Shown piece by piece: positions 7,079 to 43,350 of a stretch of 43,350 nucleotides of DNA. The stretch is taken from IMG/VR virus record IMGVR_UViG_3300044210_000067, positions 1 to 43,350 of that record; one strand, 5' to 3'. The first letter of the stretch is position 1. Each line of letters begins with the position of its first letter. Source of the stretch: a virus. Taxonomy: Duplodnaviria; Caudoviricetes. A program made the translations under genes and the position numbers. The notes beneath the pieces are model-generated. The model saw only the letters and a program-made list of their open reading frames with translations, made no database searches and was not told the DNA's origin.

Positions 7079-7861
7079 ATGTATAGTAATCACGTTGTTA
7101 TTCAAGACCCTGCCGCAATTTCAGCACGCTTTTCCACAATGGATAGGCTTGGGTATGATGGTACTGGTGATGTGGATGCTGATCTTGAGCAGATTATTGA
7201 TCATAGTCTTGCACTAGATGACGGTCCTGACCTAAAACTGAGTCGGCCGACCTTCAGTGTCATAGAGCCATACCTTATCCGCATTCCGCCGCGAGAGGCG
7301 GACTTAATTCGTCTGTATTACCGTGATCAGATGAAACAGGAACAAATCGCTCGCATGTTTGGCATAACCCAAGCAGCTGTGAGTTATCGTCTGGCTCGTG
7401 GACGTCGACGAATTCAATTTCTCTTCACCATCCCAGAACTAGATTTCGACTTGTTTGAGATGGAGCTTGGTCCGAAATTCACTGACCAGGATCGTGAAAT
7501 ACTCTGGCGTATGTATGAGACCACCTGTCAATCGAAGGTGGCAAAGCAAATGAATCTGACTCAGGGTAAAGTACGACACCGGTTCTTTAGTTCTCTTTCT
7601 CGTATCAAAGATATCATTCGAGAAGAATTGCGCGAGCGCAAGATTCACCTGGATATGGTGAAGAAGCGCTGGGCCGGAGTTGATTCGGCTGAGGTTGAAG
7701 AAGCTGAACACGATTTGCAAAATGCCATCAAAAATTCGTGTTACAGCAAATACTGGAAAGTGTTTTTTGCAATCAGTGATAAGCACTTCAATATATTACA
7801 TGAGGTATCGCTTCCACAGTTTACAGACCGTGGAGATGCGCAGATACTTGCAGTGTCATAA
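7079..7861 (+). CDS. Sigma-70 region-4-like protein with two tandem HTH domains (putative transcription regulator)
   Basis: IPPREADLIRLYYRDQMKQEQIARMFGITQAAVSYRLARG and FTDQDREILWRMYETTCQSKVAKQMNLTQGKVRHRF. Start uncertain; ATG 7079 preferred over TTG 6965. Confidence 0.72.
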   Translation: MYSNHVVIQDPAAISARFSTMDRLGYDGTGDVDADLEQIIDHSLALDDGPDLKLSRPTFSVIEPYLIRIPPREADLIRLYYRDQMKQEQIARMFGITQAAVSYRLARGRRRIQFLFTIPELDFDLFEMELGPKFTDQDREILWRMYETTCQSKVAKQMNLTQGKVRHRFFSSLSRIKDIIREELRERKIHLDMVKKRWAGVDSAEVEEAEHDLQNAIKNSCYSKYWKVFFAISDKHFNILHEVSLPQFTDRGDAQILAVS

Positions 7862-7900
7862 CTGTGTGACCGTGTCTTTGTGAGACACTAGGGGTATTTA

Positions 7901-7928
7901 GACAAGACTTTGGGTTGAAAGTCTTGTT
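7901..7928. promoter_or_regulatory. Inverted repeat (terminator or operator) overlapping the -35 of the downstream promoter
   Basis: ACAAGACTTT-gggttg-AAAGTCTTGT, a perfect 10-bp stem. Confidence 0.6.
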
Positions 7929-7943
7929 GCTACTGTGTATACT
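7915..7943 (+). promoter_or_regulatory. Sigma70-like promoter, probably giving a leaderless mRNA
   Basis: TTGAAA (7915-7920), 17-nt spacer, TATACT (7938-7943), with ATG 5 nt later and no SD. Confidence 0.65.
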
Positions 7944-7948
7944 GCAGT

Positions 7949-9796
7949 ATGAGTGTAGCAACAGAGCTGGCTAAACATGGAGTCGTAATATCCTGCGCAG
8001 TAACAGGTAGCTCAGTAATCGAAGTTTCTTGTGCATGTGGTAAACGCCAGCAACTGAAAGCGTCTTCTGTCCTCCGAACAATGAGGAGAGTCGGGAGTTA
8101 CCGGTGCTTGTCGTGTGGTATGATTTCCAAGCATGTTGATCCTGTTTATAGGGAGAGGCATCGATCAGGCATCAAGGAGTCTTGGACTGCAGAAAAACGG
8201 AAGAAGCAGTCTTGTATTTCTAGAGAGCTGTGGGCGGATCCGAAGTTCGCTGCTAAAATTACCCAAGCATCTAAAGATGCTTGGAGTGATCCGGATAAAA
8301 GAAGTGCAGCTTCACGAATGGTTCAGGGATTATGGCAGGACCCTGAGTATAGAGCTGTATTTGAGATAATCTGGGACTCGCCTGTTGAACATAAAGCTCG
8401 TTCTGAACGGGCCATGAAGATGTGGCAAGATCTTGAATATAGGCAGAGGCAGGAAACTGTTAAAATTACCCCGGAGCACAGGGCTCTACAGGCAGAGTTG
8501 GCAATTAAACGATGGCAAGATCCTAACTATCGTAATATAATCATTGAGTCTCAGAAGGAACTGTGGCTGGATCCAGCTATTCGGGAGGCAATGTCAGAGC
8601 GGGTGAAGGAACTATGGCAAGATCCTAAATATCAGAAAAAGCAATTTCATGTTGCAGTAGATCCTGGGCTTTGCAGGCAGAAATCAGAGAATGCTCGCCA
8701 TCAATGGCAGGATCCAAATGTGCGCACACTGCTTATCCAGAAGATTAAGGAGGCATGGGCTAATCCGAGTCTAAGGGAACAAGCATCGCTTACTAGTAAG
8801 CAACATTGGCAAGATCCTGAGTTTCAAAAGAAACAAGCTAAAGCTCGTGCTGCTATTCTTTTGAATGGTAAGGACTCTATTTTGGAACGGACGGCTCAAA
8901 TTGTGCTTGATGCACTTCATGTTCCATATGAGAGGCATTTTGTCATAGGATATTTTGAGTTTGATTTATTTATACCATCGCACAAATTACTGATTGAGTG
9001 TCAAGGTGAATACTGGCATTCATTACGCAAAGACAGGGATGCAGCCAAATTCACTTATATTGATACTTATTTCCCTGAGTATCGTATTATGTACTTATGG
9101 GAGCGTGATTTTATAGATCCTCGTCTCATTAAGCAGAAATTCATTCGGGAGCTTATGGGCGAGGATTCTCCACTTCATCAGGTAAATTTTTCTTTTGATG
9201 ATATTAGAATCAAGCAGCTTGATGTACATCAATGTCAGCCGAATTCATTCTACTCAGCTCCCGAAGAGTTTCTGCAGTCATTTCATTACGCCGGTTATGG
9301 ACGATCGGCTAAGGTGGTGTACGGGGCTTTTCTTGATGATATCCTGATCGGAGTTTGCAAATTTGCTTCGCCTATTCGGAACGAAGCAGCTACTTCTATG
9401 GGATTTTCCCAGGCACATGTACTGGAGCTTGATCGGTTCTGCTTACATCCGTGCTACCAAAAGAAGAACTTCGCATCTTGGTTAATATCTCGGTGCACTC
9501 GAATGGCTTTTACTAATTATTCGGGTGTTGAATCTATTTATGGGTATGCAGACGCAACGTTCGGTCATTCTGGAACGATTTATAGAGCTGCGAACTGGCG
9601 AACAGTACATACAGTTCGGCCTGATTATTACTATGTAAATCAGGACGGTTTTGTTATTCACAAGAAGACGCTTTACGATCATGCTAAGCGTAATGGGCGT
9701 TCCGAGACAGAATATGCCGCGGAGCATGGATACCTAAAGGTTCGCGGGCGCGAGAAAACGAAATTTGCTTTTGCACGTCCGAAATGTATTGTTTAG
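7949..9796 (+). CDS. Fusion protein: Zn ribbon + 17-aa W-x-D-P repeats + Vsr/DUF559-like endonuclease + Mom-like GNAT DNA-modification domain
   Basis: CACG...CLSC; about 11 W-x-D/N-P units; FEFDLFIPSHKLLIECQGEYWH; FLQSFHY...LELDRFCLHP...KNFASWLIS...YADATFGHSGTIYRAANW. Confidence 0.8.
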   Translation: MSVATELAKHGVVISCAVTGSSVIEVSCACGKRQQLKASSVLRTMRRVGSYRCLSCGMISKHVDPVYRERHRSGIKESWTAEKRKKQSCISRELWADPKFAAKITQASKDAWSDPDKRSAASRMVQGLWQDPEYRAVFEIIWDSPVEHKARSERAMKMWQDLEYRQRQETVKITPEHRALQAELAIKRWQDPNYRNIIIESQKELWLDPAIREAMSERVKELWQDPKYQKKQFHVAVDPGLCRQKSENARHQWQDPNVRTLLIQKIKEAWANPSLREQASLTSKQHWQDPEFQKKQAKARAAILLNGKDSILERTAQIVLDALHVPYERHFVIGYFEFDLFIPSHKLLIECQGEYWHSLRKDRDAAKFTYIDTYFPEYRIMYLWERDFIDPRLIKQKFIRELMGEDSPLHQVNFSFDDIRIKQLDVHQCQPNSFYSAPEEFLQSFHYAGYGRSAKVVYGAFLDDILIGVCKFASPIRNEAATSMGFSQAHVLELDRFCLHPCYQKKNFASWLISRCTRMAFTNYSGVESIYGYADATFGHSGTIYRAANWRTVHTVRPDYYYVNQDGFVIHKKTLYDHAKRNGRSETEYAAEHGYLKVRGREKTKFAFARPKCIV

Positions 9797-10354: not shown

Positions 10355-10592
10355 ACGTGCGCTGATAAAGCAGGCCCTCATGGAACACGAGGGCTGCAGT
10401 AAATTGGCAGCAGCCATGGTCAATCCGGTCCGGCGTCGGATTGACTATCAGTCGGTTGCTCGATCCATGTTTACAGTCATCAACATCACCATCCCATGTC
10501 CGGTGTGTGGTAAACATGTAGAGGATCTAATCCAGCATTGTAACGAGATTGGTGATGTAGTACACGCCGTAGTACTTGTCCATGAGACCTAG
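10335..10592 (+). CDS. Small protein: major-capsid N-terminus homolog fused to a putative Zn finger
   Basis: Residues 7-51 align without gaps to the capsid protein at 35413 (19/45 identical), followed by CPVC...HC...H. Confidence 0.75.
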   Translation: MTLSLDKRALIKQALMEHEGCSKLAAAMVNPVRRRIDYQSVARSMFTVINITIPCPVCGKHVEDLIQHCNEIGDVVHAVVLVHET

Positions 10593-23900: not shown

Positions 23901-26900
23901 TTCACCCGGGAAGTTAATGAACTTCTTTCTTTCTCCTTTTGGAAGACATATCGCCAATTACAGACAACCGATGATCATCCTGTGGAGGTCCTGTGTGGGA
24001 ATGAATTTAAGTTCCTACCAGCGAAGGATATAACTTCTGGTGATTATGTTCGTATAACATGGCCTAGTGAAAATCACGACGTCGACATTGTTGATTTTCG
24101 GTCTGATGTGGTGAAGGATACAGGTAATGGATACACAGTGATGCGATCGTATTCGCACACTCGAAATCCAGACGCCGCTCGGGCAAGGGCAGGCATGTTG
24201 GCTTGGCTATCAACTATCACAAAGCCAACAGTCAGAACGCGCGGTGACCTGGCACGTGAATTTCATGTATCAGAGTCAACACTGAATAATGTAATTACTA
24301 AGTTGCGCTCTGAACTACCGGTATTTCATCGACGAGTCGGTAGGCATGAAGGATCAAGGGTAGAATGGCTCCCGATAGGCCCTATGGAGGACGATCCTAG
24401 TCGTTATGAATGGACCCAGCCCTATACATACGAATCACCTTTATCGTTGCCGGTGTGTGATAATTTCTTGTATGTCGTTGGGTACTGGCTCGGTGATGGA
24501 ACGCTAGGTAGAGACTCCAACCGAGATACCTGGGGGCGTGGTTTATGGCAAATTGTCTTTTCATCTAAGTCTGGTGGATCCCGGGAGCGGATATATAATT
24601 ATCTGTTGACAGCATTCGGCTCCAAATGTGTTCGATCGTGGAACTCCAACGGGATGGATCATGTTAGAATTATATCCAGTCCTGCCTTCATTGAATGGTG
24701 GTCCAGCACGTTCGGTGATTCTTCTTTTGGCAAAAATCCAAAGAAGGTTCCAGAGTGGATATTGAACTTGCCGCCGGATCGGCTGCGCCACGTCGTGGCC
24801 GGCCTAATTGACTCTGACGGATGTGTAGGGCAGACACGCAGGGGTCATGTCACTTTTGCCGTGTGCTCACAGGCTTTGGCTGACTTTTTGCGCGACGCAG
24901 CCATGAAACTGGGTGCCGTGGTGAACGAAAACACACGTTCCACTCGAAAAGTACGCCTTCCAAACGGGAAGCCTGCTAAAAGCAGGCCCCAATATATCAT
25001 ACAAGCGCTGGATAGAGAATCATGTGAAAGAATGACCTCTGTCGGCCTTAAACGACCTCTTCCTGATCAAACGTATTCACGTCCGACACATTTTATTCGT
25101 ATTGATGATTCCGTTGCACTTCAAGTGCGCGATCGGGTAAGGATCCCTGGATGCCGTGTAGTCAACTTTGAGGTGGATGAAGATCACACTTATCAGGTGG
25201 ATGGATTTAGCACACACAATTGTTTCCTATTTGCCGAAGATCACGACATGACTGATGACATTCCTAGTGAATTGTTATCTGATGAAGTTGAAGAAGAGGT
25301 AAACGAGACTGATTATGCTGGTCGTGTCCAGACCAGAAAAGAGAGTAAGAAGCAGCAAAAACCGGATAGCGAACGTGCCAAGAACATCCGGGAGTATGTA
25401 GCACAAAATTATCGCGGGTGGGAGCGATTGCAGATTTTACCGCCTGAACAAGTTAAGCTCGAAGTTTTTCAGTATACGAATCGGGTTCGGATGGAGCTTA
25501 TTCCATCCGAAAAGGACCGACAGGTTGTAATGAAGGCGGTGGAACAGGGTGATCCTGAAGCAGCACGCATTGCCGATGATATTCCAGAGCAGATCCGACG
25601 GGACCTGCTTGACGGTCAGCCGATTCCGTTGAACACATCACCATTTGATGATTTCTTGTGTTCGTCATTCTGTTATCATCTATCACACAAGAAATCAGCT
25701 TATGACGACCGAGGAATTTCATTACTTGAACGGTGTCACCTCCCTGGGACCGAGGTTACGGCATTGAGGGATGGGCAAGTACTTCAGGTTCCGATCGAGG
25801 AGCTTGATCCAGAGACTGACAAAGTACTGGGAGGCTCAGGGAAGTGGAGAGGGTTCCAGTGGGGAACCAGGCCATATAATGGATCAGTAGTTGAAATCGA
25901 GTTCGAAAAACTATCAAAATCGATTGTTTCTACTCCAGATCACAAAATACACATTCTCCGCGACGGAATTGAATTGGAGACGACAGCGGACAAAGTCATG
26001 GTCAAGGACTATATCAGGGCAGCTGTCGTGAAGGCTCCCCACATCATCGATAAGGTCAGTCTCCACGATTTCTTTTTGAAAGAGAAATGGACCTATAAGC
26101 ACAGAGACACGAAAGAACAGCGCCTAGTGTCTATTACTCCGGAGAGGATTAGGGACGGGCTAATTCTCCACCACTCATGGATTGACGAGAACCCGCAGAG
26201 GGCCGGCCGTGCTAGTCTTTTGAAACGGGTGTCCGAATGGATATCTGGATTAAAGGAAGAGACTGTTTTATTGTCGGAAGACTTTCGCAGTATATTCGGC
26301 GGGATGGGGGACTCTGTTTACAGGGCTCTCATGGCGGATCTCGCGGTGGCCGGCTACGAGGCGCCGATCGTGACCGTGACCGGGTCGAGATTCAAGAGTA
26401 AAGGGCGGCTTTTCAGACCAGCGGTTGTTGACGCTTCTAGTCTTTATGAAAAGACCTCGACCCAAGAATGTCCATCTGAGCTGAAATTGACCAGGGAGCT
26501 CGGGTACTTGATTGGATACTTCCTGGGAGACGGATGTATTTCGAGCAGAAAATCTGCCATTACATATGGATTACTTGATATATGTTATGATGCAGAAACA
26601 CCTAATAGTTCTAAATCAATTGATCTGATCAAGGAATACTGTTCACAGTTTAAAGTTCGCTCTGTTCATCGAACTAACAGAGTAGACAGTATACAATTTC
26701 ATGATGACTGGTTCAATCGTTGGCTTGGAAGAAATTTCGGACACAATAAGCAGGACAAACATCTTCCGGAGTGGATTGATTCCACTCCTGAGGAATTTAG
26801 GTTTGGGCTTTTGAATGGACTGTTCGATTCGGACGGATGGGTCAGTTTATATAAAAATCAACCTGGATACGTTGACGCTACGATTTGCATGACAACCAAA

Positions 26901-31658: not shown

Positions 31659-33194
31659 ATGGCGACTAGAAGATACGCAAGAGCCATCGTGTGTAACCCA
31701 TCTGTTCAATTTGACGAATGGATGGAGACACTGCGCAAGCAGCACGAGGGGGCTATTCCGAAAGATCAACTGGCACGAACTGCTAGTGTTGTTCTCCGTA
31801 AGTGCAATCCGAATCAATATCTGTTGTCACATGCTACAATCGTAGCATCAGTGGATTGTTATGCGCCTCGATCGGCTAAGACTGGGCGTCAGATGGTATA
31901 CGGGGCTCAGATCGATGTGCGATGGCCTGATTACCGTATTAGACCTGAATGCCACGAGCTTATTAATAATAATGGAGATGCTTGGGAACGGTCTTTATTG
32001 CTTCAGACCTACCGTACATTTATTGGAGCAGCAAACTATTTAGAGCATATCCAGTTACCAGCCCTTTCTAAGGGATTCATAGTTGATGCAATAGCCCGTG
32101 ATCTCGGAAAAACCTGTTATGTTGATATTCTAGTTGCTACTGAGCGTAAGCATCAGCAACTTGTTACGGACATATTATCAGGTGTGATTATCGGGTTGTC
32201 CATGGGGTGCATCTCGTTATTCACTATTTGCACTAAATGTGGAAACGTCGCTAGTGATGATTCTCAATCATGCCCATGCATTATGTATGAGGGCAAGGGT
32301 CGTAAGTTCTCGGATGAAGACGGAATTGAGCACCCAATTTCGGAGCTCATTGGACATTCGTCGGTTCCGAATTCGAACCAATTTATTGAGGCTAGTTGGG
32401 TTCGTAACCCAGCGTTCAGTGGCGCTATACGGCGTGGCTTTCTGAACCTGGGGCAAGAGACTATTGAACAGATTGGCCAGGCCAAAACTGCATATGAAAT
32501 GCGACAGGCAGAGCCACAACTTGAAGGACTGCGGCATGCAGCATCGGTTAGGCGAGGTCAGGCGCTCGACGATACTGAATCTCAGTTTCAGACTGAAATG
32601 GATGCGGCACAGGGTGGGCAGACACAAGCACCAGTGGATGGGACTGATCAAACAGGAACTGACCAAGGCCAGGTGTCACCTACTGATGACCCTATTTCGA
32701 ATCTAGTGCAGAAGGCTCAAGAGCAGTTACTTGAGCTTTTGGTGAAAGGTCTTGGAGAAAAGCTAACCCCTAAACCTGAGGATGTTGGATCAGTTGCTCC
32801 GGTATCTTTGCCAGTTACCATGCATTCAAATGATAACCTTGTTAGAGCTTTTGATCAGGGTTTAGCTCGTGTTTTTACAGGTCAAAATGAACTGGTGAAA
32901 TGGGCTTCTAAAGTATGGCGTATCGCCCATTTGGGCGGGCGACATGCTATTAAAAATGCTCATCTTTCGCCACGTGACATGGTAGTCCTTTCATGGATCG
33001 AGGATCGTATCAATGGCTGGGAATTACCAGCCGAGATTTATCAGATCGCGATGAATATTGGACCCATTACCGCTTTTCCGAGCGAGACTTCTTTCCTGGC
33101 TGCATGTAGAACCAGGATGGGTCGCAATCCCACTCCGGGCGAGTGCACAGCTTTGATCCGCAAGGGTCGAGTTGCGTCGATCGCAAATTTCTAA
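31659..33194 (+). CDS. Putative prohead (capsid maturation) protease with Zn-finger insertion
   Basis: INNNGDAW, YLEH, GLSMGC (candidate catalytic Ser), CTKC...CPC, FIEASWVRNPAF, resembling HK97/U35-type protease motifs. Upstream of scaffold and capsid genes. Confidence 0.72.
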   Translation: MATRRYARAIVCNPSVQFDEWMETLRKQHEGAIPKDQLARTASVVLRKCNPNQYLLSHATIVASVDCYAPRSAKTGRQMVYGAQIDVRWPDYRIRPECHELINNNGDAWERSLLLQTYRTFIGAANYLEHIQLPALSKGFIVDAIARDLGKTCYVDILVATERKHQQLVTDILSGVIIGLSMGCISLFTICTKCGNVASDDSQSCPCIMYEGKGRKFSDEDGIEHPISELIGHSSVPNSNQFIEASWVRNPAFSGAIRRGFLNLGQETIEQIGQAKTAYEMRQAEPQLEGLRHAASVRRGQALDDTESQFQTEMDAAQGGQTQAPVDGTDQTGTDQGQVSPTDDPISNLVQKAQEQLLELLVKGLGEKLTPKPEDVGSVAPVSLPVTMHSNDNLVRAFDQGLARVFTGQNELVKWASKVWRIAHLGGRHAIKNAHLSPRDMVVLSWIEDRINGWELPAEIYQIAMNIGPITAFPSETSFLAACRTRMGRNPTPGECTALIRKGRVASIANF

Positions 33195-33232
33195 ACCCTT
33201 GATAAAAGCTAGTCCATCAGGAGACACCCAAA

Positions 33233-34543
33233 ATGCGCGCACGAACCACGTGGCAATCCAAAGGCACTGCGGCTCCACGTCAAGCGGCAACTAATCGCCG
33301 CGCCGATATCTACACCATGAATCAGGAGCATCCGCAGCCGTCAGCGGTCGACTACGAAAAGGGCGATCCTGATGCATGGGCGGAAACTCCTGTTCCTGGC
33401 GATAAAATGACGGTGGAGGACGAATATGAGGGTGGCGCTGTTAAGCGAAATGAAATCGGCCTCCCCGATATGCGGGATGATACATTTAAGCATAAGGATT
33501 CCCACGTATGGGGTGGACCCGGAAAGTATGATAATGCTAGGGTCTCTTCTGAGCGTAAGGCTGTAGCTGCTGAGCGCATGGCTCGGGTGCTTTTGCGTGG
33601 AACTGGTAATGAACAGTTAATTGAACAAATGGCATGTGATCTGATGGCGCTACCAGATCGTTGCATGATTGCTACGATTAAGCGTATGGACGCAGCAAGC
33701 CCTGCAGCTCTACCATCAGATGCTAGACATCGCCGTGCTTTGCTTTGTACCAAGCTTGCCTACCGTCTTCTTGGCGATCATGCTGATGAAGAGGCCACAC
33801 AGATTGTGGCTACGGAGTTCATGAAGACCGAGGATTCTGTCCTACGTACTATTGCTCGTACTGTGGCTAGAATGGCCCAAGATGAGCAGCAGGAAGAGGA
33901 AGACGAGGAAGACGAGCATACTAGCCAGCAGCAACAGCAAGGCCAGCAACAGCAACAGCAGGGCCAGCAACAGCAAGGCCAGCAACAGCAACAGCAGGGC
34001 CAGCAACAGCAACAGGGCCAGCAACAGCAGCAACAACAAGGCCAGCAGCAACAACAACAAGGCCAGCAGCAGCAGCAGGATCAGGCGAAGTGCAGTCAGC
34101 AGCAAGATGCCTGTGGACTTTCTCCTGCTGAGTTAGTTGTGCTTGATCAGGTCATATCTCCTCAGGCTGTTCCGGCCGATCAGTTACAAGCGTTGTTTCA
34201 GCCATCCCCGATAGCTCCGGTCGAAGCTCTTCCAGTTTTGGCTACAGGGCAATCGGATCAACCGGATATATCGTTTGATGATGACGACGATGACGATGGT
34301 GGTGGTGAGCCTGAGGCAGCTGTGACAGCAGTGGCTTCGCTCGACGAGTTATTTGATGATGATCCTGAGGTTCAGGCTCAACGTCAGATCCAGGCTGCTC
34401 AGGATCAACAATTTCGTCGAGAGCTTGGTTATCAAGGCACTGAGCGGATTGCTTCTACTAGGGGCGTGAAAAAGCTCGGACAGGTTTCTCGTGTGCGGGA
34501 GTCTGTGATAGACCAGCTTGGAGCTATCTGGGAGCACCAATAA
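33233..34543 (+). CDS. Putative scaffolding protein with poly-Gln and acidic tracts
   Basis: Between protease and capsid genes; low-complexity, helical/disordered; SD AGGAG. Confidence 0.6.
   Translation: MRARTTWQSKGTAAPRQAATNRRADIYTMNQEHPQPSAVDYEKGDPDAWAETPVPGDKMTVEDEYEGGAVKRNEIGLPDMRDDTFKHKDSHVWGGPGKYDNARVSSERKAVAAERMARVLLRGTGNEQLIEQMACDLMALPDRCMIATIKRMDAASPAALPSDARHRRALLCTKLAYRLLGDHADEEATQIVATEFMKTEDSVLRTIARTVARMAQDEQQEEEDEEDEHTSQQQQQGQQQQQQGQQQQGQQQQQQGQQQQQGQQQQQQQGQQQQQQGQQQQQDQAKCSQQQDACGLSPAELVVLDQVISPQAVPADQLQALFQPSPIAPVEALPVLATGQSDQPDISFDDDDDDDGGGEPEAAVTAVASLDELFDDDPEVQAQRQIQAAQDQQFRRELGYQGTERIASTRGVKKLGQVSRVRESVIDQLGAIWEHQ
33926..34079 (+). repeat. CAG/CAA/GGC repeat encoding (Q4-7 G)n
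   Basis: QQQQQGQQQQQQGQQQQG..., a tract of about 50 codons. Confidence 0.95.
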
Positions 34544-34550
34544 TATAACT

Positions 34551-34587
34551 CATGGCCTTCCAGTACCTTGCGGACTGGAAGGCCATG
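34551..34587. promoter_or_regulatory. Perfect 14-bp hairpin after the scaffold gene (no U-tract)
   Basis: CATGGCCTTCCAGT, 9-nt loop, ACTGGAAGGCCATG. Confidence 0.75.
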
Positions 34588-34742
34588 CTGATACAAATAC
34601 ATATACAGGCATTTAGTACCTACGAGGTCTGCTCTGGATGATTCTGCAGGACCGAAAAGGACGGGCTCGCGGTTTAGATCGGACTGAACCCATTTTTTGG
34701 TAAGGCTGGATCAGATCAGAATCGGACTCACGGAGAGATACA

Positions 34743-35390
34743 ATGAGTATTGGCGGCCAAGCATCTGGCGACTTTCGTCTCGGCCAAGGTGCTCTGCGCA
34801 TTCTTTATTCGCTAATCAAGGACACAATTCCTGTTCTTGCGGCGGATGGATTCACGCAGAGCAATCCAAACGTTGTGGTGACAGTTGCGAATGTATCAAG
34901 CACCCTTCCTGCGAACGTAAAAAGAGGCGTTCTCGGTGGATCGGTGGCTTTTACCCGTCCCGATATAGGGGCGAACACAGTTGGTGGTGCACTGCTGGTC
35001 GGTGGCATCTATGTGCCGAGGATGCGTCCTCTCGGACTATTCCTGAATGACGCAGTTGGCAATGCATATGAGAACACTCCAGGTACGGCATCAGGCAAGG
35101 GTCCGTTCCTGCGTGGTGGTGCATGCGGGGTCAAGATCTACGAGACCAATCGGCAACTTGGTGGTAGTACCGATTTGGTCTACTACACAGGTGACCTCCT
35201 TTATGCATCAGTAAACGGTTATCTTACTAACCGGTGGCAAGACTCGCTCGAGTCTGCATGGCTAACACAAACCAGTGGCGGCTCTGGCGGCGCTGGTGCA
35301 CCAATTGAACCGGACGTGACCCGCATGGGTGTCGTCCTTTCGCCCCCAGATTCAATCAACGGAGAGCTCTTCGTAGAGCTCTACTTCTAA
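34743..35390 (+). CDS. Putative capsid decoration/cement protein
   Basis: Gly-rich beta-type sequence (PLGLFLND...GDLLYASVNGYLT...MGVVLSPP) directly upstream of the capsid gene; SD GGAG. Confidence 0.6.
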   Translation: MSIGGQASGDFRLGQGALRILYSLIKDTIPVLAADGFTQSNPNVVVTVANVSSTLPANVKRGVLGGSVAFTRPDIGANTVGGALLVGGIYVPRMRPLGLFLNDAVGNAYENTPGTASGKGPFLRGGACGVKIYETNRQLGGSTDLVYYTGDLLYASVNGYLTNRWQDSLESAWLTQTSGGSGGAGAPIEPDVTRMGVVLSPPDSINGELFVELYF

Positions 35391-35412
35391 GGATAAGGGA
35401 GGTAAAAGGACC

Positions 35413-36303
35413 ATGAACCCCTTCGGTATACAGGTAGTTGATAACGCCCTTAAGGAAAGACTGGTGGACCAGCACATTGGGAGCGGCGCAGGTCGTAAGC
35501 GCATTGCCGCCTCGATGGTCCAACCTCTACGTGATCGTAGAGATTACTCTTCCGTTGGTCGGAAGACATTTCTTGTTGAGCAGATACCGGACGGTGCCAT
35601 GCCGGTGTACGACAAGGACCCGGAAGTGGTGGCGTATGTCATCGGTGAAGAGGGCGAAAGCATTACTGCAATTGCCAAGCCTCGCCGTGTGATTTTCCCA
35701 CTGTTCGAGATTGCAGCTCTACCCAAAGCTCCACTGACTCAGGTCAAGGAACGCCGGTACGACCTCCTGAAGCGTATGCAGGATCTTGGCAAGGCTCAGA
35801 TCCAGGCTGCAGAAGATGATCGAGTCTTCTCGATCATGGATGCAGTTGCTGTTAACGGGTTCGATTCACTTCCGGGTGGAACGAATCCAGATATTCCGGT
35901 TGTTGCTCCTATATCGCCGGATATCCTTGCAGATGCATATGCTGAAATAGAAGGTCACGACCTTCGTGTTGCTCGTGTGTTCCTGAATGCACGTGATTAT
36001 GCGGATATCCGGAAGTTTGGACGCGATGTCTTGGACATTGAATCGCAGGCAACTCTGTGGAAGACGGGCATGATGGCAACTGGGTGGAATGCCCAGTTTA
36101 TTGTCAGCCGTCTTGTTCCTGCCGGCGTGGTTTATATTTGCTGCGAACCGGCGCAATTTGGACGAATCCCAGTTCGTACCGAATTGACTGTATTGTCTGC
36201 AGACAATTCTGAGGACAGGACGATTGGATTCTCGATGTTTGAGAATTTAGGCATCGGGGCTTACAACCCACGCGGTCTAGTTCGTCTTATCGTCCAGCGG
36301 TAA
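35413..36303 (+). CDS. Major capsid protein (HK97 fold, compact/encapsulin-like size)
   Basis: Strong SD AAGGGAGGT. Backbone-helix-like DLLKRMQDLGKAQIQAAEDDRVF, P/A-domain-like VFLNARDYADIR, C-terminal GIGAYNPRGLVRL. Followed by a terminator. Confidence 0.82.
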   Translation: MNPFGIQVVDNALKERLVDQHIGSGAGRKRIAASMVQPLRDRRDYSSVGRKTFLVEQIPDGAMPVYDKDPEVVAYVIGEEGESITAIAKPRRVIFPLFEIAALPKAPLTQVKERRYDLLKRMQDLGKAQIQAAEDDRVFSIMDAVAVNGFDSLPGGTNPDIPVVAPISPDILADAYAEIEGHDLRVARVFLNARDYADIRKFGRDVLDIESQATLWKTGMMATGWNAQFIVSRLVPAGVVYICCEPAQFGRIPVRTELTVLSADNSEDRTIGFSMFENLGIGAYNPRGLVRLIVQR

Positions 36304-36326
36304 CTATTAGTTACACTTAGAACGAG

Positions 36327-36371
36327 CGTCTAAGCCCTGATACCATATGGTGTCGGGGCTTAGATGTATTT
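36327..36371 (+). terminator. Probable rho-independent terminator after the capsid gene
   Basis: CGTCTAAGCCCTGATACC-ATAT-GGTGTCGGGGCTTAGATG, a long stem with G-U pairs, followed by TATTT. Confidence 0.7.
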
Positions 36372-36401
36372 GGCATAAATGATCATGGTGTACCATAAGT
36401 A

Positions 36402-37928
36402 ATGGGCTGCAAAAAATGCTCATCTGCCAATGATTCTTTTTTTGGATACTGCAATGCATGTTCGCAGCAGGCCAGCTATTTGGAGAAATATCCCGGCTTA
36501 CAGTCTTTTCTTTCTCTTGAGTCGATATCCCTTCTTGCAGGAAAGGTTTCAGCATCTGACAATTTGATTTTAGAGTGCAAGTGCCAGGTATGTCAAAGGC
36601 AATCTCAAGTGAAGCTGATCAGCGTGCTGAAGCAGTATAGGCGCCATACCAATGCTAAGCGCCCCATCTTCTATCGTTGTCTGCGCTGTTCTAAGGCCGG
36701 AGTAACGCATCTGACTGTTGACACTGTTCAGAGTGTGATCGATATAGAATCAACGATGATGCAGTTTGGAGGCCTTCCGAAGAATGTGAAGCACGGCAAA
36801 GTAGTAGCCATTTGTGAAGATTGTCATCAGTCCCAGACAGTTAAACTTAGCAGTCTCTTGCATCAAGCAAGAAGGCACCGTATGGCTGGAAGAACGTGCA
36901 TCTATAAGTGCTTCCGATGCGGTATAACACGTGAGGATGCTGTTGTTAGGTCTGCCGTTGCTAGAGCCAAGCAGCTGTCTAATGGGTTTCGATCATGTCT
37001 GGAGACAGCAATGACGAATCGACTTACGACCCTAGGTATTAGTTTTTGGTCGCAGCATGCCGTCGGCCTCTACACATGGGATTTCTTCCTGCCAGATTTC
37101 GGAATTCTCATTGACGTTGATGGGGAATATTGGCATTCAAGGCATGATAGAATTTGTAAGGACACGGCCAAGATGACCTATACACAGCGGTACTTTCCGG
37201 AATATCGTACCGTTCGAATTGAAGAGAAAAATTTTCTGAATCCGGCCATTGTGGATCGTCTATTACTAGCTCTACTAGGTCAGCTTCCGGCTCCAGTCAA
37301 GATTGACTTTGATTTTGCCAACGTGTCAGTGGATAAAGTTGGTGGTAAGGGGGATCCTGTAGATGTATATCGTTCTTTCCTTGATTCTTATCATTATGCC
37401 CAATGCGGCCGGCCCGGATTTGTGGTCTATGGTGCGGTCTTAGCTAGTGAATTAATTGCAGTGTGCAAATTCAACTCTGTCACCAGGCAGGGTACGCCTG
37501 CGGCTCGTGGCCTCAAATGTCACGAGGTTTTAGAGCTCGATCGCTTTTGTATTCACCCGTCTTATCAGAAAAAGAATTTTGCATCATGGTTCCTCTCTCG
37601 GTGCATATCTCGCGTTTTTTCTGACTATTCTGGTATAGCAGAACTTGTTAGCTTTGCCGACGAGACCTTCGGCCATTCAGGGACGATTTATGCCGCGTCG
37701 AACTGGGTATACATCGGGCATACTAGACCAAGTTATCACTATATGGATCCCTTAGGAGTAGCAATTAATAAGAAGAGGGTCTATGATATCGCATCCAAGC
37801 TCAAAATGACTGAGCGGGAATATGCTGATAAGCATGAATTGGCTCAGTTTGCTGAGAAGCCTAAGGCCAAGTATGTTTTTCCTCGTAGGAACCGGAGAAT
37901 AACTTCATCTATAACCAGACTCCAATGA
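36402..37928 (+). CDS. Fusion protein: multiple Zn ribbons + Vsr/DUF559-like endonuclease + Mom-like GNAT domain (paralog of 7949-9796)
   Basis: Three CxxC...CxxC modules; YTWDFFLPDFGILIDVDGEYWH; FLDSYHY...LELDRFCIHPSYQKKNFASWFLSRC...SFADETFGHSGTIYAASNW. Confidence 0.8.
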   Translation: MGCKKCSSANDSFFGYCNACSQQASYLEKYPGLQSFLSLESISLLAGKVSASDNLILECKCQVCQRQSQVKLISVLKQYRRHTNAKRPIFYRCLRCSKAGVTHLTVDTVQSVIDIESTMMQFGGLPKNVKHGKVVAICEDCHQSQTVKLSSLLHQARRHRMAGRTCIYKCFRCGITREDAVVRSAVARAKQLSNGFRSCLETAMTNRLTTLGISFWSQHAVGLYTWDFFLPDFGILIDVDGEYWHSRHDRICKDTAKMTYTQRYFPEYRTVRIEEKNFLNPAIVDRLLLALLGQLPAPVKIDFDFANVSVDKVGGKGDPVDVYRSFLDSYHYAQCGRPGFVVYGAVLASELIAVCKFNSVTRQGTPAARGLKCHEVLELDRFCIHPSYQKKNFASWFLSRCISRVFSDYSGIAELVSFADETFGHSGTIYAASNWVYIGHTRPSYHYMDPLGVAINKKRVYDIASKLKMTEREYADKHELAQFAEKPKAKYVFPRRNRRITSSITRLQ

Positions 37929-37970
37929 TGCCGATGCCACTAGCGTAGCCTTCTTTTTCGTCGTTTCGAT

Positions 37971-38708
37971 GTGAATTCCAGGACCCTAGTCCGTATCATG
38001 CTTCGTGTTGCTGGCACTATTCGTGTGTCGCAAGAAATTACGATATTTGAGCTGCCATATGCTAAGGGTTTGGATCCGTCCAAGCTTGACAAGAAAATGC
38101 CAGATAGGTCGAAAGAAGTGCTGAGCGACCTTATCAAGGATAATGGTGGCAGACAAATCAGGTTTGAAGATGATCATCTTCGATTCGAGGTACCGGAGGA
38201 AAGAGTTCATTTTCTTGAGGCTGATCTTAAGGATTGGTCAGAATTAGATAAGAGTTCCAAACTCTTCCAGATGCCCAGAATGCTTCAATACCCAAAGATG
38301 GAAGTGAAGAAACCATCAGATACCAAGCGTCGTCCGGGTGGAGATGACGTCACATCAGAATCTAATCGGAAAAAAGCTCCGAAATCCAAAGAACGTGGAG
38401 TACGAGACGAGCGGACTCAGACACCTGTTAAGTCATCGGGAGGTGGCACGGCGCCAACGGAGAAGACAGAGGGTAAGAGTTTCCGTGTTGAGATTCCGGT
38501 GAGTATGCGTGGTTTAGTGCGAAGACTCCAAGGAAACCCACATCTTAAGACGGTGCTTGAGGAATATGGTGGTAAGCCTGGTAAGGGTGAAGGTTTGGTT
38601 ATGGAGTTTCCGGATAGAAAGAAACGCTCGGAAATATTAGATGAAATTTCCGACGCAGTTCAAAGCTCTGGATTTTTGCGTGAGATCCTTGATCTGGCTG
38701 AAATTTAA
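37971..38708 (+). CDS. Hypothetical protein (charged, two small domains with a disordered linker)
   Basis: 245-aa ORF with a GTG start. Confidence 0.7.
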   Translation: MNSRTLVRIMLRVAGTIRVSQEITIFELPYAKGLDPSKLDKKMPDRSKEVLSDLIKDNGGRQIRFEDDHLRFEVPEERVHFLEADLKDWSELDKSSKLFQMPRMLQYPKMEVKKPSDTKRRPGGDDVTSESNRKKAPKSKERGVRDERTQTPVKSSGGGTAPTEKTEGKSFRVEIPVSMRGLVRRLQGNPHLKTVLEEYGGKPGKGEGLVMEFPDRKKRSEILDEISDAVQSSGFLREILDLAEI

Positions 38709-38747
38709 TCATTATTATATACTATAACTTTTTCGAATTGATGCATA

Positions 38748-39263
38748 ATGGCTTTCATCGGAATCCCGATACCCGCACAGGAAATTACGAAACTGGCAAT
38801 GACGGCAACAAAGCTGCCAGGTCAACTTGAACCGCCGTCTGAGTATCATACGACATTATTCTACCTTGGTAAGGGAACGTCATTCAGTGTGCTCATGCAA
38901 GCCTTGGTTGCGATTCAGCCAGTTGTAGCTTCATACTCCAAATTTCTTGTAGGTGCAGCTCGGATGATTGCATTTCCGAAGGGTGATGATGGGCACCCAC
39001 TTGTGGCGCGTGTCTTGAGTCCTGTGCTGCATAATTTACGGACCATGCTTGCGACGGTGTTGGACACCGCTGGTGTTTCATATTCTAAGAAATGGCCTAT
39101 ATGGATCCCGCATATATGTCTTTCGTACTCTCCTCATACGATGCTTGCCAATGACTTAGTAACGCCTATTGTTTGGCAGGTGGATAAAGTGCACGTATGG
39201 GGAGGAGATGACTGGAACACTCGTTTCCATGCAGAACTTGAACTCGGCACAGCCTGGCCGTAA
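38748..39263 (+). CDS. 2H phosphoesterase (2'-5' RNA ligase / Acb1-like)
   Basis: AFIGI at the N-terminus and two H-x-T-like motifs: YHTTLFYLG and PHICLSY. Confidence 0.82.
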   Translation: MAFIGIPIPAQEITKLAMTATKLPGQLEPPSEYHTTLFYLGKGTSFSVLMQALVAIQPVVASYSKFLVGAARMIAFPKGDDGHPLVARVLSPVLHNLRTMLATVLDTAGVSYSKKWPIWIPHICLSYSPHTMLANDLVTPIVWQVDKVHVWGGDDWNTRFHAELELGTAWP

Positions 39264-39292
39264 ATTCACATATCTCGTGCGTATGTTACGGA

Positions 39293-40432
39293 ATGCCAAC
39301 ATATACTATTGAAATGCTGTGGCAGTGTGGGACCTGTGGTCATCGTGATAATAAGGGTCTCTCGCCAAAGTGTGAAAGCTGTGGAAAACCAAAGGATGAC
39401 CGAGATCTCGAATACTTCCCAGAAGATGTATCCGAGACAGCAGAGTTGTCTGGTAAAAAACTCGAGCGAGCATTGTCCGGTCCTGACTGGATCTGCAAAT
39501 ATTGCGAGACACGCCAAAATAAGGCTGATCGAATATGTTATAATTGCGGATGTGATCAGAATACTGGAAATATTTATAAGACACGTGATCTCGAATTATC
39601 CGAGAAAGCTGATGAATCAAATAGACTTGAGTTTTCCAAAGAAGACGATAAAACCAACGAAACCAATAAACTAAAGTCAGTCGGCGCACCACTGCTTACC
39701 ACTCAGTTAAAACAGGCTCGCACAAGTGGAATCTCACGACGTTCTTGGATACTACCAGGATTGGTACTGATTGCTGCGTTGTCTGGGGTAGTGGCTTTAC
39801 TTTGGTGGTTATTTCTTCCGAGTTATGTTGAAGCACGAGTAACCGCAGTACATTGGTCCTGCACAGCTCGATATTGGGCTCAGCGTCCTGTAAGATATGA
39901 GGGTTGGCAGGTTCCGCCGGGTGCCTTCCAAGTGGAGAACCTTGGTCAGCGGGTGCAATCCTACAATGAACGCGACTGTGACTGTAGATCAGTGCCAAAG
40001 ACATGCACAAAAAGTGAACGTGTGTGCACAAAGACGAATCGGGAATGCAAAAGTAACAAGAATGGCTCGGCGACGTGTACCGGTGGCGATAATGTTTGTA
40101 CCGGTGGCGATAATATTTGTACCGGTGGGGGTATTAAATGCCGTACCTGTCGCGATCCTGTGCTCGCTCAGTGGTATTCATGGTTGCATACGGAGCGAGT
40201 ACTAACTAATACACTAACTCAATCAGGCGATACTTTCGTAGTGAAGATTCCTTCGGAATGGGATAAAGATCATCCCGAATATAATTGGTTGTGGGAAACT
40301 GTATTTACTGGGGATGATGGGCGGACTTATACATACCATCCGAAATCACCGGAGGAATGGAGAAGCATGCCGGTCGGCTATGGTCGTCAGTTGCGCGTCA
40401 ATAAAATAGGTTTCCAGTTAACGCCTGGCTAG
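39293..40432 (+). CDS. Membrane protein with two RanBP2-like Zn ribbons and a Cys-rich external domain
   Basis: WQCGTC...CESCG; GPDWICKYC...CYNCG; TM segment WILPGLVLIAALSGVVALLWWLFL; Cys-rich C-terminal region. Confidence 0.8.
   Translation: MPTYTIEMLWQCGTCGHRDNKGLSPKCESCGKPKDDRDLEYFPEDVSETAELSGKKLERALSGPDWICKYCETRQNKADRICYNCGCDQNTGNIYKTRDLELSEKADESNRLEFSKEDDKTNETNKLKSVGAPLLTTQLKQARTSGISRRSWILPGLVLIAALSGVVALLWWLFLPSYVEARVTAVHWSCTARYWAQRPVRYEGWQVPPGAFQVENLGQRVQSYNERDCDCRSVPKTCTKSERVCTKTNRECKSNKNGSATCTGGDNVCTGGDNICTGGGIKCRTCRDPVLAQWYSWLHTERVLTNTLTQSGDTFVVKIPSEWDKDHPEYNWLWETVFTGDDGRTYTYHPKSPEEWRSMPVGYGRQLRVNKIGFQLTPG
40076..40128 (+). repeat. 21-bp tandem repeat (CTGGDN[V/I]) x2.5
   Basis: TGTACCGGTGGCGATAATGTT / TGTACCGGTGGCGATAATATT / TGTACCGGTGG. 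Confidence 0.9.
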
Positions 40433-40989
40433 AATGGCACAGGACCGCTAGCACTTGTTGTCAATTCGGCGTTCAACCGCATCAGCTTCCCTTGTGCCTC
40501 TAGTGTGAGCACCTCGGTCTTCTGGAGCATAGGACTACTGCCGTCTATGCCTTTGCGTAATCTTACCCAGCGAAGAGCAGCATCAACTGCTGCATCCATA
40601 GCTTTATCAAATCGGACCTGTTCTTGCTGTTGGTGTGATTCCAGCCATGCATTAGCAGTCAGTCCGATTTCCCACATGCAACGTAATAAATCTGGTGGCA
40701 CCTCCACGCTGCCCCAGTCCTGATTTCCTGTAAGTATCTGGGTGAGAGTATCTGGGGTACGACCTTTTTTAGCCCTAGCATCAAGTTTTGTGGCCGCTGT
40801 CTCGAGAATTGCTAAAGCCTCGGACGGTTTCACACTTGTAGCCCATATATCTAACAGAAATACATCCGAGTTGGCCTCCATGGCCAAGGATTCGGCTGCC
40901 TTAGGCGATAATTGAAGCTCTTGCTTTCCCCACGTTTCGGCCGCTTCTCTTAGCTCCCGGGCTATTTCTTCATATGTTTGTTCTTTCAT
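40429..40989 (-). CDS. Hypothetical helical protein
   Basis: In frame with the listed 40429-41010 ORF. The second ATG (40989) is preferred because it carries the CGTA-N9-ATG motif. Confidence 0.7.
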   Translation of the reverse strand: MKEQTYEEIARELREAAETWGKQELQLSPKAAESLAMEANSDVFLLDIWATSVKPSEALAILETAATKLDARAKKGRTPDTLTQILTGNQDWGSVEVPPDLLRCMWEIGLTANAWLESHQQQEQVRFDKAMDAAVDAALRWVRLRKGIDGSSPMLQKTEVLTLEAQGKLMRLNAELTTSASGPVPF

Positions 40990-41025
40990 GGTGGAACGTA
41001 CGCTTTTCATGTTTTGTTCTTGTTG

Positions 41026-41853
41026 ATGGATCCACGTATTTTTGTTTCATGCCTTCGAAGAATATCCACCTACATCAGTTCGAATCCCGTTCCGGATAAG
41101 TATAAAGTGCGTTCGGCTGTATTACAGTTGCTTTTTGCGACTGATCGGACTTTATCGCTTACGGTTCGGGATGCCTTGCTCCGGGAGATCGCGAAGCTTG
41201 TTCCTGGGGAATTCGGGGGCGAGACATATGATACTAATCCAGGAGGCAAGGGCTTTCGTCCGGGATATGTGTCATTCGGACTGGACCCCAGCACTTGGGA
41301 AGAGGCCCAAATAATTGGCGGCATTCTTTTCCGATGCACTTATAACCCAGCAGAATTCAGATCTGAGGAACCAGATCCGAAAGCTCAGGAACGCGCCGGA
41401 TGGAAAGGGCACTCACAAGGTGGTGGTGTCGTTTCTCTTAAAATTGAATGCGGCTATTACAACAAGTTGGTGGATGGGTCCTACCAAAGCGAACGAAAGC
41501 TGGGTGAGGCTAGGGTACTTGTTGATGATCAAGAACAGACCATAGACGTCGAGATCCCAGATCCTGCAACTTTTGCTAGTGGTATCAAGGATCTTATTCA
41601 GGAGATCAAGGCTGAGCCACCTGCTATAGCGCAGTCTGCTGCACGTAAGCGTCAGTTGCAAGCGCCGACAACGAGTCCAACAGCACTCCTTACTTGGCTG
41701 GTGAAGACCAATCAGGATTCTGTTGGAAGGTCCGAGATTGAGGCTTTGGTGCGGGCTATGGCAGGGCGTACTGATCGGACTTATTCGAACGTATTGGAAG
41801 AGGTTACGGCCTTTTTCCGTAAAAGGCACTGGCCAATCGACCCTAATAAATAA
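41026..41853 (+). CDS. Hypothetical protein
   Basis: ATG 41026 (MDPRIF...) is in frame with the listed 40978 ORF and avoids overlap with the divergent gene. Confidence 0.72.
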   Translation: MDPRIFVSCLRRISTYISSNPVPDKYKVRSAVLQLLFATDRTLSLTVRDALLREIAKLVPGEFGGETYDTNPGGKGFRPGYVSFGLDPSTWEEAQIIGGILFRCTYNPAEFRSEEPDPKAQERAGWKGHSQGGGVVSLKIECGYYNKLVDGSYQSERKLGEARVLVDDQEQTIDVEIPDPATFASGIKDLIQEIKAEPPAIAQSAARKRQLQAPTTSPTALLTWLVKTNQDSVGRSEIEALVRAMAGRTDRTYSNVLEEVTAFFRKRHWPIDPNK

Positions 41854-42123
41854 TTAGTCAGCGTGTATCTGGTCGGCGGCAATAGCAGCTTTGAGGTCGT
41901 TGTTTTCCAGAGCTGTTTTGAGTCCATTAATATTGGCTGTCCACGGCGACAGCCATCGGATAATATTCCCATCATCTGTTAGTCTGCATGCAGGAACGTC
42001 CCATTCGCCGCGGAGACGGATTGTCACGGTATATTCGCGCCGTTCCCGATAGCCTGGCATGGGGAGGAGAGCCTTGGTTATGAAAGCTATGGCGTCGTCT
42101 GGGAGATCACATTGCCATATCAT
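41854..42123 (-). CDS. Hypothetical protein
   Basis: 89-aa ORF whose stop abuts the convergent neighbour; CGTA-N9-ATG upstream. Confidence 0.65.
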   Translation of the reverse strand: MIWQCDLPDDAIAFITKALLPMPGYRERREYTVTIRLRGEWDVPACRLTDDGNIIRWLSPWTANINGLKTALENNDLKAAIAADQIHAD

Positions 42124-42313
42124 GCTTACCTATACGTTTTAGGTTAACAGACTTACGATTTTGTGTCTCTCTGGTCGGATATGCTTATTAAAGTGGCTCT
42201 TTGAAATTAGAATCAACTAATAGGCAAATTTTGTTTTGAGAATGCGTCTATAGATTCTTTTTGGGCTGTATGGGACGTACGGCTCATGTCTACGGTGTGA
42301 AGCCGAGGGATTC

Positions 42314-42802
42314 ATGAAGATTTCCAACATTACTCACCTGCACGCTGATGGTCCACGGCGCCTTTATCTAAAGGATCTCAAGTTTTTGCCTGAAGCTCAG
42401 ACTGAGGGGCGCCGCAGTGACGATTTGTACTTGGACCCGGTAGGGCAGGCACCTCTGGTTAGGCAAGGAATCTATGTTCCGCCACGGACTTATATATATC
42501 TGCCAGACACATCTGAGGTGCTTCGTAGTGCTTCTTATGGTGACATTCATAAATGGGTCGCCATGGGGTATTTACAGACGCATGATCGATTGAGTCTGAC
42601 AGCTGTTGGTGGATTGCATGATACAGAGGTCCTGACACATAATCTTGGATATGCTCCGACGGTGGTTGCACTGAAGCAGGTTGGTATAACCTGGATAGAT
42701 GCAACTGGCACGGTTGATATCGTGCATAATGCAAACTTCACGACAGTAACGATTTCCAACCCGACAGGGGTCGCGCTTGTGCTCCTGATCAAGATTTCTT
42801 GA
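42314..42802 (+). CDS. Putative structural protein
   Basis: 162-aa ORF with SD GAGGG. C-terminal LTHNLGYAPTV...VTIS beta motif of a kind seen in phage fibre/structural proteins. Upstream of the collagen gene. Confidence 0.6.
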   Translation: MKISNITHLHADGPRRLYLKDLKFLPEAQTEGRRSDDLYLDPVGQAPLVRQGIYVPPRTYIYLPDTSEVLRSASYGDIHKWVAMGYLQTHDRLSLTAVGGLHDTEVLTHNLGYAPTVVALKQVGITWIDATGTVDIVHNANFTTVTISNPTGVALVLLIKIS

Positions 42803-42822
42803 GGAAGGGAGTGAAACGGTAA

Positions 42823-43350
42823 ATGGCAAATCCCGTAAGCATTCGCGATAAACCGTTTGGAACGCTTTGGACCTCTATCTTTGGCACAGGTCCTACCGGG
42901 CCATCCGTTATTGGCTTCACTGGCCCCCAAGGAGACACTGGTATACAAGGGGCAACCGGTGTACAAGGGGCAACCGGTGTACAAGGGGCCACTGGTATAC
43001 AAGGTCAGACGGGGCCTGCAGGTGGACCCCAGGGATCACCTGGTGGAACTGGTCCTCAGGGGGCCACTGGCTTACAGGGGGCCACTGGTGTCCAGGGGTT
43101 AACTGGTCCTCAGGGGGCCACTGGTGCTCAGGGGTCGACAGGTCCTCAAGGTGCTACCGGTGTACAAGGTATTCAAGGCACGCCTGGTGTGACAGGTCCT
43201 CAGGGGGCCACTGGTGTACAGGGTGCCACTGGTGTTCAAGGAGCCACCGGTGTACAAGGTCAGACAGGTCCTCAAGGGGCCACCGGTGTACAGGGAGCCA
43301 CTGGTGTTCAAGGAGCCACTGGGCCGCAAGGAGTTACAGGCGTACAGGGT
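42823..43350 (+). CDS. Collagen-like (Gly-X-Y) fibre protein, 3'-truncated by the window; absent from the supplied ORF track
   Basis: ATG 42823 behind GGAAGGGAG. Reads [26 protein letters not shown]...[22 protein letters not shown]... and stays open to the window end. Confidence 0.9.

Follow-up and report, generated by a model that had tools for sequence, protein, structure and literature searches.

A Hef-like nuclease with a fused Mom-like domain behind a phage capsid gene: most likely a homing endonuclease, possibly immune through its own modifier

Hef-type homing endonucleases belong to the EDxHD family according to Taylor et al. (PMC3239194), and Hef of phage U5 is described as cleaving nrdB (PMC2988022). 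Mom of phage Mu uses Gly-tRNA to form 6-NcmdA in DNA, and its residue R151 is reported to be essential (PMC13219725). Shuffling of Zn fingers among homing endonucleases is already published (PMC10448857), as is the fusion of Mom to a nuclease (PMC7824862). In the literature searched we found no published test of the role of the Mom half in Hef-like nucleases, nor did we find the two published readings of such proteins, homing endonuclease and restriction-modification weapon, weighed against each other. Searches for papers joining Mom, Hef and homing endonuclease, or Hef-like, homing endonuclease and acetyltransferase, found none; on self-protection by a fused modifier they found nothing besides PMC7824862 and PMC4738411.

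The locus presented here lies in a stretch of 43,350 nucleotides (the window), a 43-kb piece of a large tailed phage whose relatives reach 360-440 kb. It contains two nuclease-Mom genes, copy 1 at the sigma site and copy 2 at the capsid site (Table 1). Reads of one DNA run cover positions 33000-43350 evenly, with no joint across the copy 2 gene. A terminase with one LAGLIDADG intein (17010-20333, +) and a 2354-aa portal ORF with several inteins (20988-28052, +) indicate a phage rich in homing elements.

Table 1. Positions of the genes, domains and sequence elements discussed in the text.
Feature	Positions	Strand	Description
Sigma-70 region-4 gene flanking copy 1	7082..7861 (start approximate)	+	PF04545 E 6.5e-12; 41 related loci
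Paralogue, copy 1	7949..9796	+	615 aa: one Zn ribbon, eight WxDP and the same core
Major capsid protein gene, predicted target	35413..36303	+	phrog_2522 E 4e-44
Predicted binding segment, capsid codons L-G-I-G-A-Y	36247..36264	+	mirrored upstream of relatives' nuclease gene
Carrier-associated CGCGGT (Arg-Gly codons)	36271..36276	+	30-25 bases before capsid stop
Terminator-like hairpin behind capsid gene	36326..36367	+	-34 kcal/mol, z -9.7
TG-TACCAT-N5-ATG	36389..36404	+	-10-like box, likely leaderless start
Hef-like gene, copy 2	36402..37928	+	508 aa: Zn module, EDxHD nuclease and Mom domain
Copy 2 N-terminal module	36408..36920	+	a pair of homologous Zn ribbons preceded by a 4-Cys site; predicted to bind DNA
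Copy 2 Vsr-like (EDxHD) nuclease domain	36990..37286	+	E201, D227, D238, H245, D254
Copy 2 Mom-like GNAT domain	37299..37886	+	H331, Y332, R381, S395, D420, Y430

Copy 2 is a real, intact member of a family that already bears the name Hef-like. Its core aligns with one annotated Hef-like protein over both the nuclease and the C-terminal domain (hhalign probability 96%, E 3e-9, 216 columns). The core of copy 1 has matches at 744 places in 351 phage records; many of the 40 matches listed for it are annotated Hef-like, and among the matches listed single Campylobacter phage records hold up to 11 places. The gene type is thus already known. A profile of 26 close relatives matches both I-Bth0305I (3R3P, E 8e-9) and Mu Mom (8BV8, E 2e-6), and the structure model of copy 2 (pLDDT 86) has Mom 8BV8 as its best PDB match by Foldseek (E 1.4e-9), with phage homing endonucleases among its best viral structural matches. 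D227, H245 and D254 align with D196, H213 and D222 of I-Bth0305I, and the EDxHD residues are kept in 50-52 of the 53 family rows. Both domains are under constraint (pN 0.12-0.26 vs pS 0.65-0.86 in five pairs). Distant nuclease-Mom members with 33-35% identity also occur on short contigs of Promethearchaeota bins (L432-L435), possibly binned viral DNA.

The C-terminal domain matches PF25680 with E 4.5e-19 and 69 bits against a family cut-off of 27.1, and six of the seven key residues of Mu Mom (equivalents of H58, Y59, R111, S124, D149 and Y159) are kept in 51-53 of the 53 rows. The seventh, R151, corresponds to Thr422 of copy 2; the position is Thr in both window copies and in 46/53 rows, and Arg in several other Mom subclades. 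Because R151 is not kept, we file the domain as Mom-like and not as proven Mom. A homing endonuclease whose Mom-like domain lacks acyl transfer, and acts only in DNA binding, dimerisation or the sensing of modified bases, would agree with this replacement and with the differences that annotated Hef-like proteins also show at Y59 and D149. The retention of the other six residues speaks against such an inactive domain, as does an unrelated methyltransferase with SAM-binding and catalytic motifs that occupies the same place in other cassettes, and we regard it as very improbable.

A previous sequence-only reading had described copy 2 as a paralogue of copy 1 with a swapped N-terminus, belonging to a family that spreads within the genome while keeping nuclease and modifier coupled. 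Its outline is right, and its claims of in-genome spread and of fixed coupling are wrong. The nuclease and Mom-like halves are indeed alike (41% identity over 319 aa, E 1e-77), the three motifs it quoted are present in both copies, and the eight WxDP repeats and single Zn ribbon of copy 1, as well as the absence of WxDP from copy 2, are as it described. Repeated ribbons do occur twice in copy 2 (aa 61-96 and 138-173), with a spacer before the Tyr of 8 and not the 6 given. Copy 2 has six CxxC motifs and a separate 4-Cys site at aa 3-20, and the ribbon cysteines are invariant across 26 relatives. Look-alikes of the module (CapR/DUF723/DUF4379) at 0.85-0.87 are a lead only, and a fold search over 48,161 chains gave no clear match (best Z 5.7), which is uninformative either way. 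The proposed swap of N-termini between the two copies does not follow from these data: the same Zn ribbon is found in both, the copies differ by ribbon number and loss of WxDP repeats, and gain or loss of repeats explains this equally well.

The pairwise alignment and domain-wise trees it had proposed as a check show homologous cores, at the identity given above, and two separate clades. Of the 53 rows, 48 went into the nuclease and Mom trees (5 were excluded as partial or of other fold), and in each tree copy 2 clusters with other genes of the capsid site and copy 1 with other genes of the sigma site. Spread within this genome is contradicted by these site-specific clades, and a recent in-genome duplication is ruled out by them; the copies are therefore old paralogues, each moving between phages at a fixed site. 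The N-terminal module also tracks the site, since a search with the Zn module only returned loci behind the capsid gene in 8/8 cases.

The suggestion of a mobile, modular family with presence/absence variation was borne out by the alleles at the two sites. Seventy-nine capsid loci were collected, in most of which the capsid gene is 85-91% identical, and 74 of them plus the window could be classed: 11 had a Hef-Mom gene, 9 an HNH-methyltransferase gene, 13 an HNH gene seen without methyltransferase (many cut off or decayed), 1 another HNH gene, 3 (and 2 partial) a LAGLIDADG-methyltransferase gene and 24 none, while 12 were too short. After removal of 7 divergent loci and merging of near-identical ones, 43 informative alleles remained, of which 8 carry the window's type, with 6 changes on the head-protein tree that are all forced by supported branches. 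Among 33 sigma-site alleles, 10 hold the WxDP type (9 changes), 2 hold remnants, 18 hold none and 2 hold an AP2-HNH gene followed by the same methyltransferase as in the capsid-site cassettes.

For lateral movement, the sigma site gives support, with congruence rejected by AU tests in both directions (p 0.007 and 0.017). The capsid site gives a mixed picture: p was 5e-6 for the cassette tree, 0.024 for capsid DNA and 0.135 for head proteins (not rejected). The groups tested were picked after the trees were seen. Four sister pairs are congruent. In 4/4 unsaturated sister pairs cassette pS exceeds flank pS (0.67 vs 0.25-0.35; 0.80 vs 0.53-0.55; 0.80 vs 0.48-0.67, where one poorly aligned flank gave 0.81; 0.65 vs 0.14-0.35), an excess that different codon bias could inflate, and three further pairs are saturated. 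The loci L010 and L024 have flanks 99% identical on both sides and differ from the capsid stop onward over 500-680 bases; the site is thus exchanged as a cassette that includes the terminator. Sliding windows showed no long co-conversion tract. TAG recoding as the cause of the break in L021 and L065 was unsupported (coding cover 0.79 vs 0.83).

Nor are nuclease and modifier always coupled, as had been supposed. All of the 21 Mom domains examined (from 25 matches, in five relatives) are fused to a nuclease, 15 to EDxHD and 6 to HNH, with none free-standing; the Mom tree needs at least two partner changes between the two nuclease types, and modifier-free nucleases exist. The HNH, LAGLIDADG and AP2-HNH cassettes carry one methyltransferase family with SAM-binding and SPP(F/Y)-type motifs, the latter being linked to N4-cytosine methylation. 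A search with this family gave 13 closest matches, all at capsid or sigma sites (10 of them built the query), and among seven more distant capsid loci with LAGLIDADG and/or methyltransferase genes 5 had both, and others had LAGLIDADG alone. With Mom on EDxHD and HNH, and the methyltransferase on several folds, nuclease and modifier are therefore exchangeable modules. Either part can occur without the other: L012 has an intact-looking HNH gene without methyltransferase at the capsid site, L015 and L063 have lost the HNH part and kept the methyltransferase, and L021 has a stop codon in the nuclease and an open Mom frame.

Some individual loci deserve separate mention. The amino-methyltransferase is fused to the nuclease or overlaps it in L004:7032-8654, L038:6917-8560, L058:7093-9408, L067:7014-8975 and L153:4337-6699. 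In L180:2300-4476 an in-frame fusion joins the N-terminal Zn finger of the HNH-methyltransferase cassette to a complete Hef-Mom protein of the capsid-site type (P0025), making the locus a chimera. At L275:2045-5208 a Mom-free EDxHD gene, whose relatives in L267 and L268 have Mom, lies directly 5' of an HNH-Mom gene, and this locus may record the capture of a Mom domain by an HNH module. Mom matches number 0, 8, 0, 5 and 1 in five complete relatives, and Mom-fused nuclease genes are likewise uneven over G001-G010, with five genomes having none, four having 5-8 and one having 1.

The start of copy 2 suggests how the gene is expressed. The hairpins noted upstream of both copies are real (z -5.7 and -2.9, 200 shuffles), the one before copy 1 not being a family trait, as relatives' ORFs may start 14 bases behind the sigma stop. 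The absence of an SD sequence from both gene starts was confirmed. The TGTA-N9-ATG pattern does stand before both copies and is weak alone, occurring at 7 places among 1006 plus-strand ATGs; the stricter TG-TAnnnT-N5/6-ATG occurs 3 times and, among 30 listed gene starts, before copies 1 and 2 only. With N5, it is present in 8/9 carriers of the Hef-Mom gene and also before other occupants of the capsid site. A -10-like box five bases before the start marks leaderless transcripts. The hairpin behind the capsid gene was absent from the terminator scan because its T-run is short. In the window (36326-36372) and in most capsid loci, carriers and non-carriers alike, a GTATT-like sequence and no long T-run comes after this hairpin, and in several loci that sequence also serves the following gene as its -10 box. 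In the window the 3' arm of the hairpin agrees with the capsid segment of the same phage at 13/18 bases, which may be chance.

A degenerate copy of the L-G-I-G-A-Y codons of the capsid gene sits 5' of the carriers' -10 box. When the upstream regions of 9 carriers were scanned against all 856 windows of the capsid gene, the best fit lay 52 bases before the stop, with a mean score of 6.3, whereas none of 40 shuffles exceeded 2.2 and the 13 empty loci scored -0.1 or lower there. In seven of the 9 carriers the match covers 9-13 of the 13 fixed bases and lies at a distance of 16-22 bases from the start; other loci reach at most 9 (9 in 2/35). At this usual distance the mimic is missing before the window's own gene (score -1.8) and in L047. 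HNH cassettes mimic the adjacent M-F-E codons instead (6.7 vs at most 4.8 in 30 shuffles). The position of the carriers' mimic by the promoter resembles the arrangement of the I-TevI operator.

These results bear on another reading, a single-chain restriction-modification weapon with a short site, in which Mom would mark the phage genome-wide and the nuclease would destroy host or rival DNA. Unrelated nuclease-modifier cassettes alternate at one site here, as bacterial restriction cassettes do, and this reading has been published for the Mom-REase fusions of jumbo phages (Iyer et al. 2021, PMC7824862). However, a short-site weapon fits poorly with the site fidelity and the mimic: the Zn-module lineage lies behind the capsid gene in all 8 loci, and the mimic matches one place in the adjacent gene. 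Moreover, the partners include LAGLIDADG, a long-site fold, and the relatives Hef and I-Bth0305I cut single genes. We find this reading improbable, though less so than an inactive Mom-like domain. Most likely the gene encodes a homing endonuclease that stands free and is directed at the 3' end of the capsid gene.

About 10 bases beyond the mimicked capsid segment, carriers tend to hold the hexamer CGCGGT, which in a post hoc comparison was present in 7/8 carriers vs 4/35 others. A whole-gene permutation gave p 0.014 for 6-mers, or about 0.04 over the three word sizes tried; 3-mers and 9-mers in the capsid gene were not significant. The difference was present in 6/6 hand-picked sister pairs, in which the next best column reaches 3, and random independent pairings gave a median p of 0.06. 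The only carrier without CGCGGT among the 8 is L021, with its interrupted nuclease; of two further carriers L178 has it and the chimera L180 does not. It occurs in 5/36 more distant non-carrier loci, and a pattern scan for new carriers returned 36 loci unlike the earlier ones and 0 carriers. Carriers of HNH-methyltransferase favour CGCGGC (6/7 vs 6/36). For this HNH group a similar p turned up 585 bases away, and there shared ancestry is a likely cause. At this one silent position, then, carriers of Mom retain an A on the minus strand and carriers of the methyltransferase a C. The minus-strand A opposite the T at 36276 is the predicted Mom substrate; in the window it lies in a G-A-C context, fitting the SAS of Mu Mom, and two carriers have A-A-C. 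No single-base carrier association went beyond permutation (capsid gene p 0.6, sigma gene 0.17, downstream gene 0.12), and in the downstream gene of the sigma site one 4-mer reached p 0.02 with 6 carriers among six scans. Neither operator mimic nor carrier haplotype was found at the sigma site, and both signals should be read as post hoc, from few alleles and unreplicated at that site.

The same mobility and target evidence applies to a capsid 3' homing endonuclease with sequence-based immunity, in which CGCGGT would itself be resistant and Mom would be cargo that modifies the genome broadly against host restriction and so pays its upkeep. Mu Mom is described as modifying 15-25% of adenines and protecting against restriction; modifier-only remnants persist (the methyltransferases of L015 and L063, the open Mom frame of L021), and the existence of modifier-free nucleases is in line with sequence immunity. 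On the other hand, sequence immunity should allow several variants, whereas carriers share a single two-base combination amid silent sites that are variable. As cargo, Mom domains that number up to 8 in one genome and sit on as many different nucleases exceed what broad protection needs; none of the 21 is free-standing, and 2/5 complete genomes do without Mom. We consider cargo with sequence immunity possible but rather unlikely, and the choice between sequence immunity with an anti-restriction Mom and chemical self-protection remains close. Chemical self-protection is favoured because carriers hold one exact two-base combination, because the base follows the modifier type and because unrelated nucleases at the site have each acquired a modifier. 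Hef reportedly cuts its own DNA in vitro (Sandegren and co-workers, in 2005), which would fit chemical self-protection.

The reading we prefer, with somewhat less than even confidence and from sequence comparisons, is that the gene homes by cutting unmodified capsid alleles and that its Mom domain protects the carrier's own site. It starts from the domain order, the conserved catalytic residues, the fixed site and the patchy presence. Behind the capsid terminator, the gene's own -10 box would drive a transcript without a leader. Its Zn ribbons would bind the L-G-I-G-A-Y codons at 36247-36264 and, in most relatives, also the promoter-overlapping mimic, which would cause autorepression as in I-TevI. 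The nuclease would then cut the DNA of a co-infecting phage slightly downstream, near 36271-36276, and repair would copy the cassette. Taken together, these four steps are probably correct. In the fifth and weakest step, to which we give slightly better than even chances if the first four hold, the tethered Mom domain would acylate the minus-strand A opposite 36276 and thereby block self-cleavage. According to this proposal carriers must keep CGCGGT because Mom would acylate that A.

More tentatively still, there could be a class of homing elements that are self-immune by chemistry and not by target mutation, each joining a long-site nuclease of any fold (EDxHD, HNH or LAGLIDADG) to an exchangeable modifier (Mom for adenine, likely an amino-methyltransferase for cytosine). 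Each cassette would fix one silent position as the base on which its modifier can act, and the cassettes would fight over the same bases at the capsid 3' end. Should modification confer self-immunity, an invariant coding sequence could serve as the target of a free-standing homing endonuclease and stay unaltered. One protein would then combine homing with restriction-modification, and it would provide a tool for site-directed, tRNA-dependent modification of adenine. The locus supplies a concrete substrate for such questions: a 30-base capsid stretch, a candidate operator and a single candidate base.

Other parts of the window and of related loci touch on the capsid gene. At 10335-10592 (+), far from the capsid gene, an 85-aa ORF shows homology to the N-terminal part of the major capsid protein (35% over 74 aa) and may act as a decoy or regulator of capsid assembly. 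Relatives have fragments of this kind too, near the sigma site in L158 and reversed behind the capsid gene in L083. In L064 the major capsid gene is immediately followed by another, diverged one at 6984-7997 (phrog_2522, E 4e-19). The window also encodes a 2H phosphoesterase at 38748-39263 (+), whose match to anti-CBASS Acb1 is weak (E 0.009, below the cut-off).

In comparison with known systems, Hef and the Hef-like proteins (of Campylobacter Fletchervirus, Dickeya LIMEstone1, Shigella vB_SdyM_006 and Pseudomonas PA5oct in our comparison set) have in common with the window genes an order of variable N-terminal repeats, Vsr-like nuclease and C-terminal Mom-like domain, and both stand free beside conserved genes in several copies per genome. 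Identity to the Hef-like proteins is only about 24%, and the window copies belong to a separate Mom subclade, which has retained the H-Y and D residues of Mu Mom and carries Thr in place of R151. Unlike Hef, copy 2 has a Zn-ribbon-only N-terminus, and its candidate target is the capsid gene and not nrdB. I-Bth0305I (3R3P), the EDxHD prototype, has the same nuclease fold, catalytic residues and DNA-binding repeats ahead of the nuclease, but is intron-encoded, with NUMOD repeats and without a Mom domain. Mu Mom (8BV8) shares the GNAT fold and the six equivalent residues; it stands alone and modifies many SAS sites, whereas the Mom-like domain of copy 2 is fused behind a nuclease and lacks R151.

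The Mom-REase fusions of jumbo phages (Iyer et al. 2021, PMC7824862) are the same fusion, again in multiple copies per genome, and are read there as restriction-modification; in the accessible text we found no homing, site fidelity or target link. Single-chain restriction-modification systems (Type IIG/IIL-like) couple a nuclease and a protective modifier around a shared recognition module; in copy 2 the fusion itself is seen, with protection as a predicted role and with a modifier that is not a SAM methyltransferase, and indirect evidence on recognition length favours one long site over a short repeated one. T5orf172 homing endonucleases with CapR-type Zn fingers show repeated Zn fingers, domain shuffling and enrichment near capsid genes, but differ from copy 2 in having another nuclease fold and no modifier domain. 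I-TevI has a target-like operator overlapping its promoter, as proposed here, with a GIY-YIG fold and without a modifier domain. Set beside these systems, two things are new: a candidate target within the capsid gene, and a single site at which nuclease-modifier cassettes of unrelated kinds alternate.
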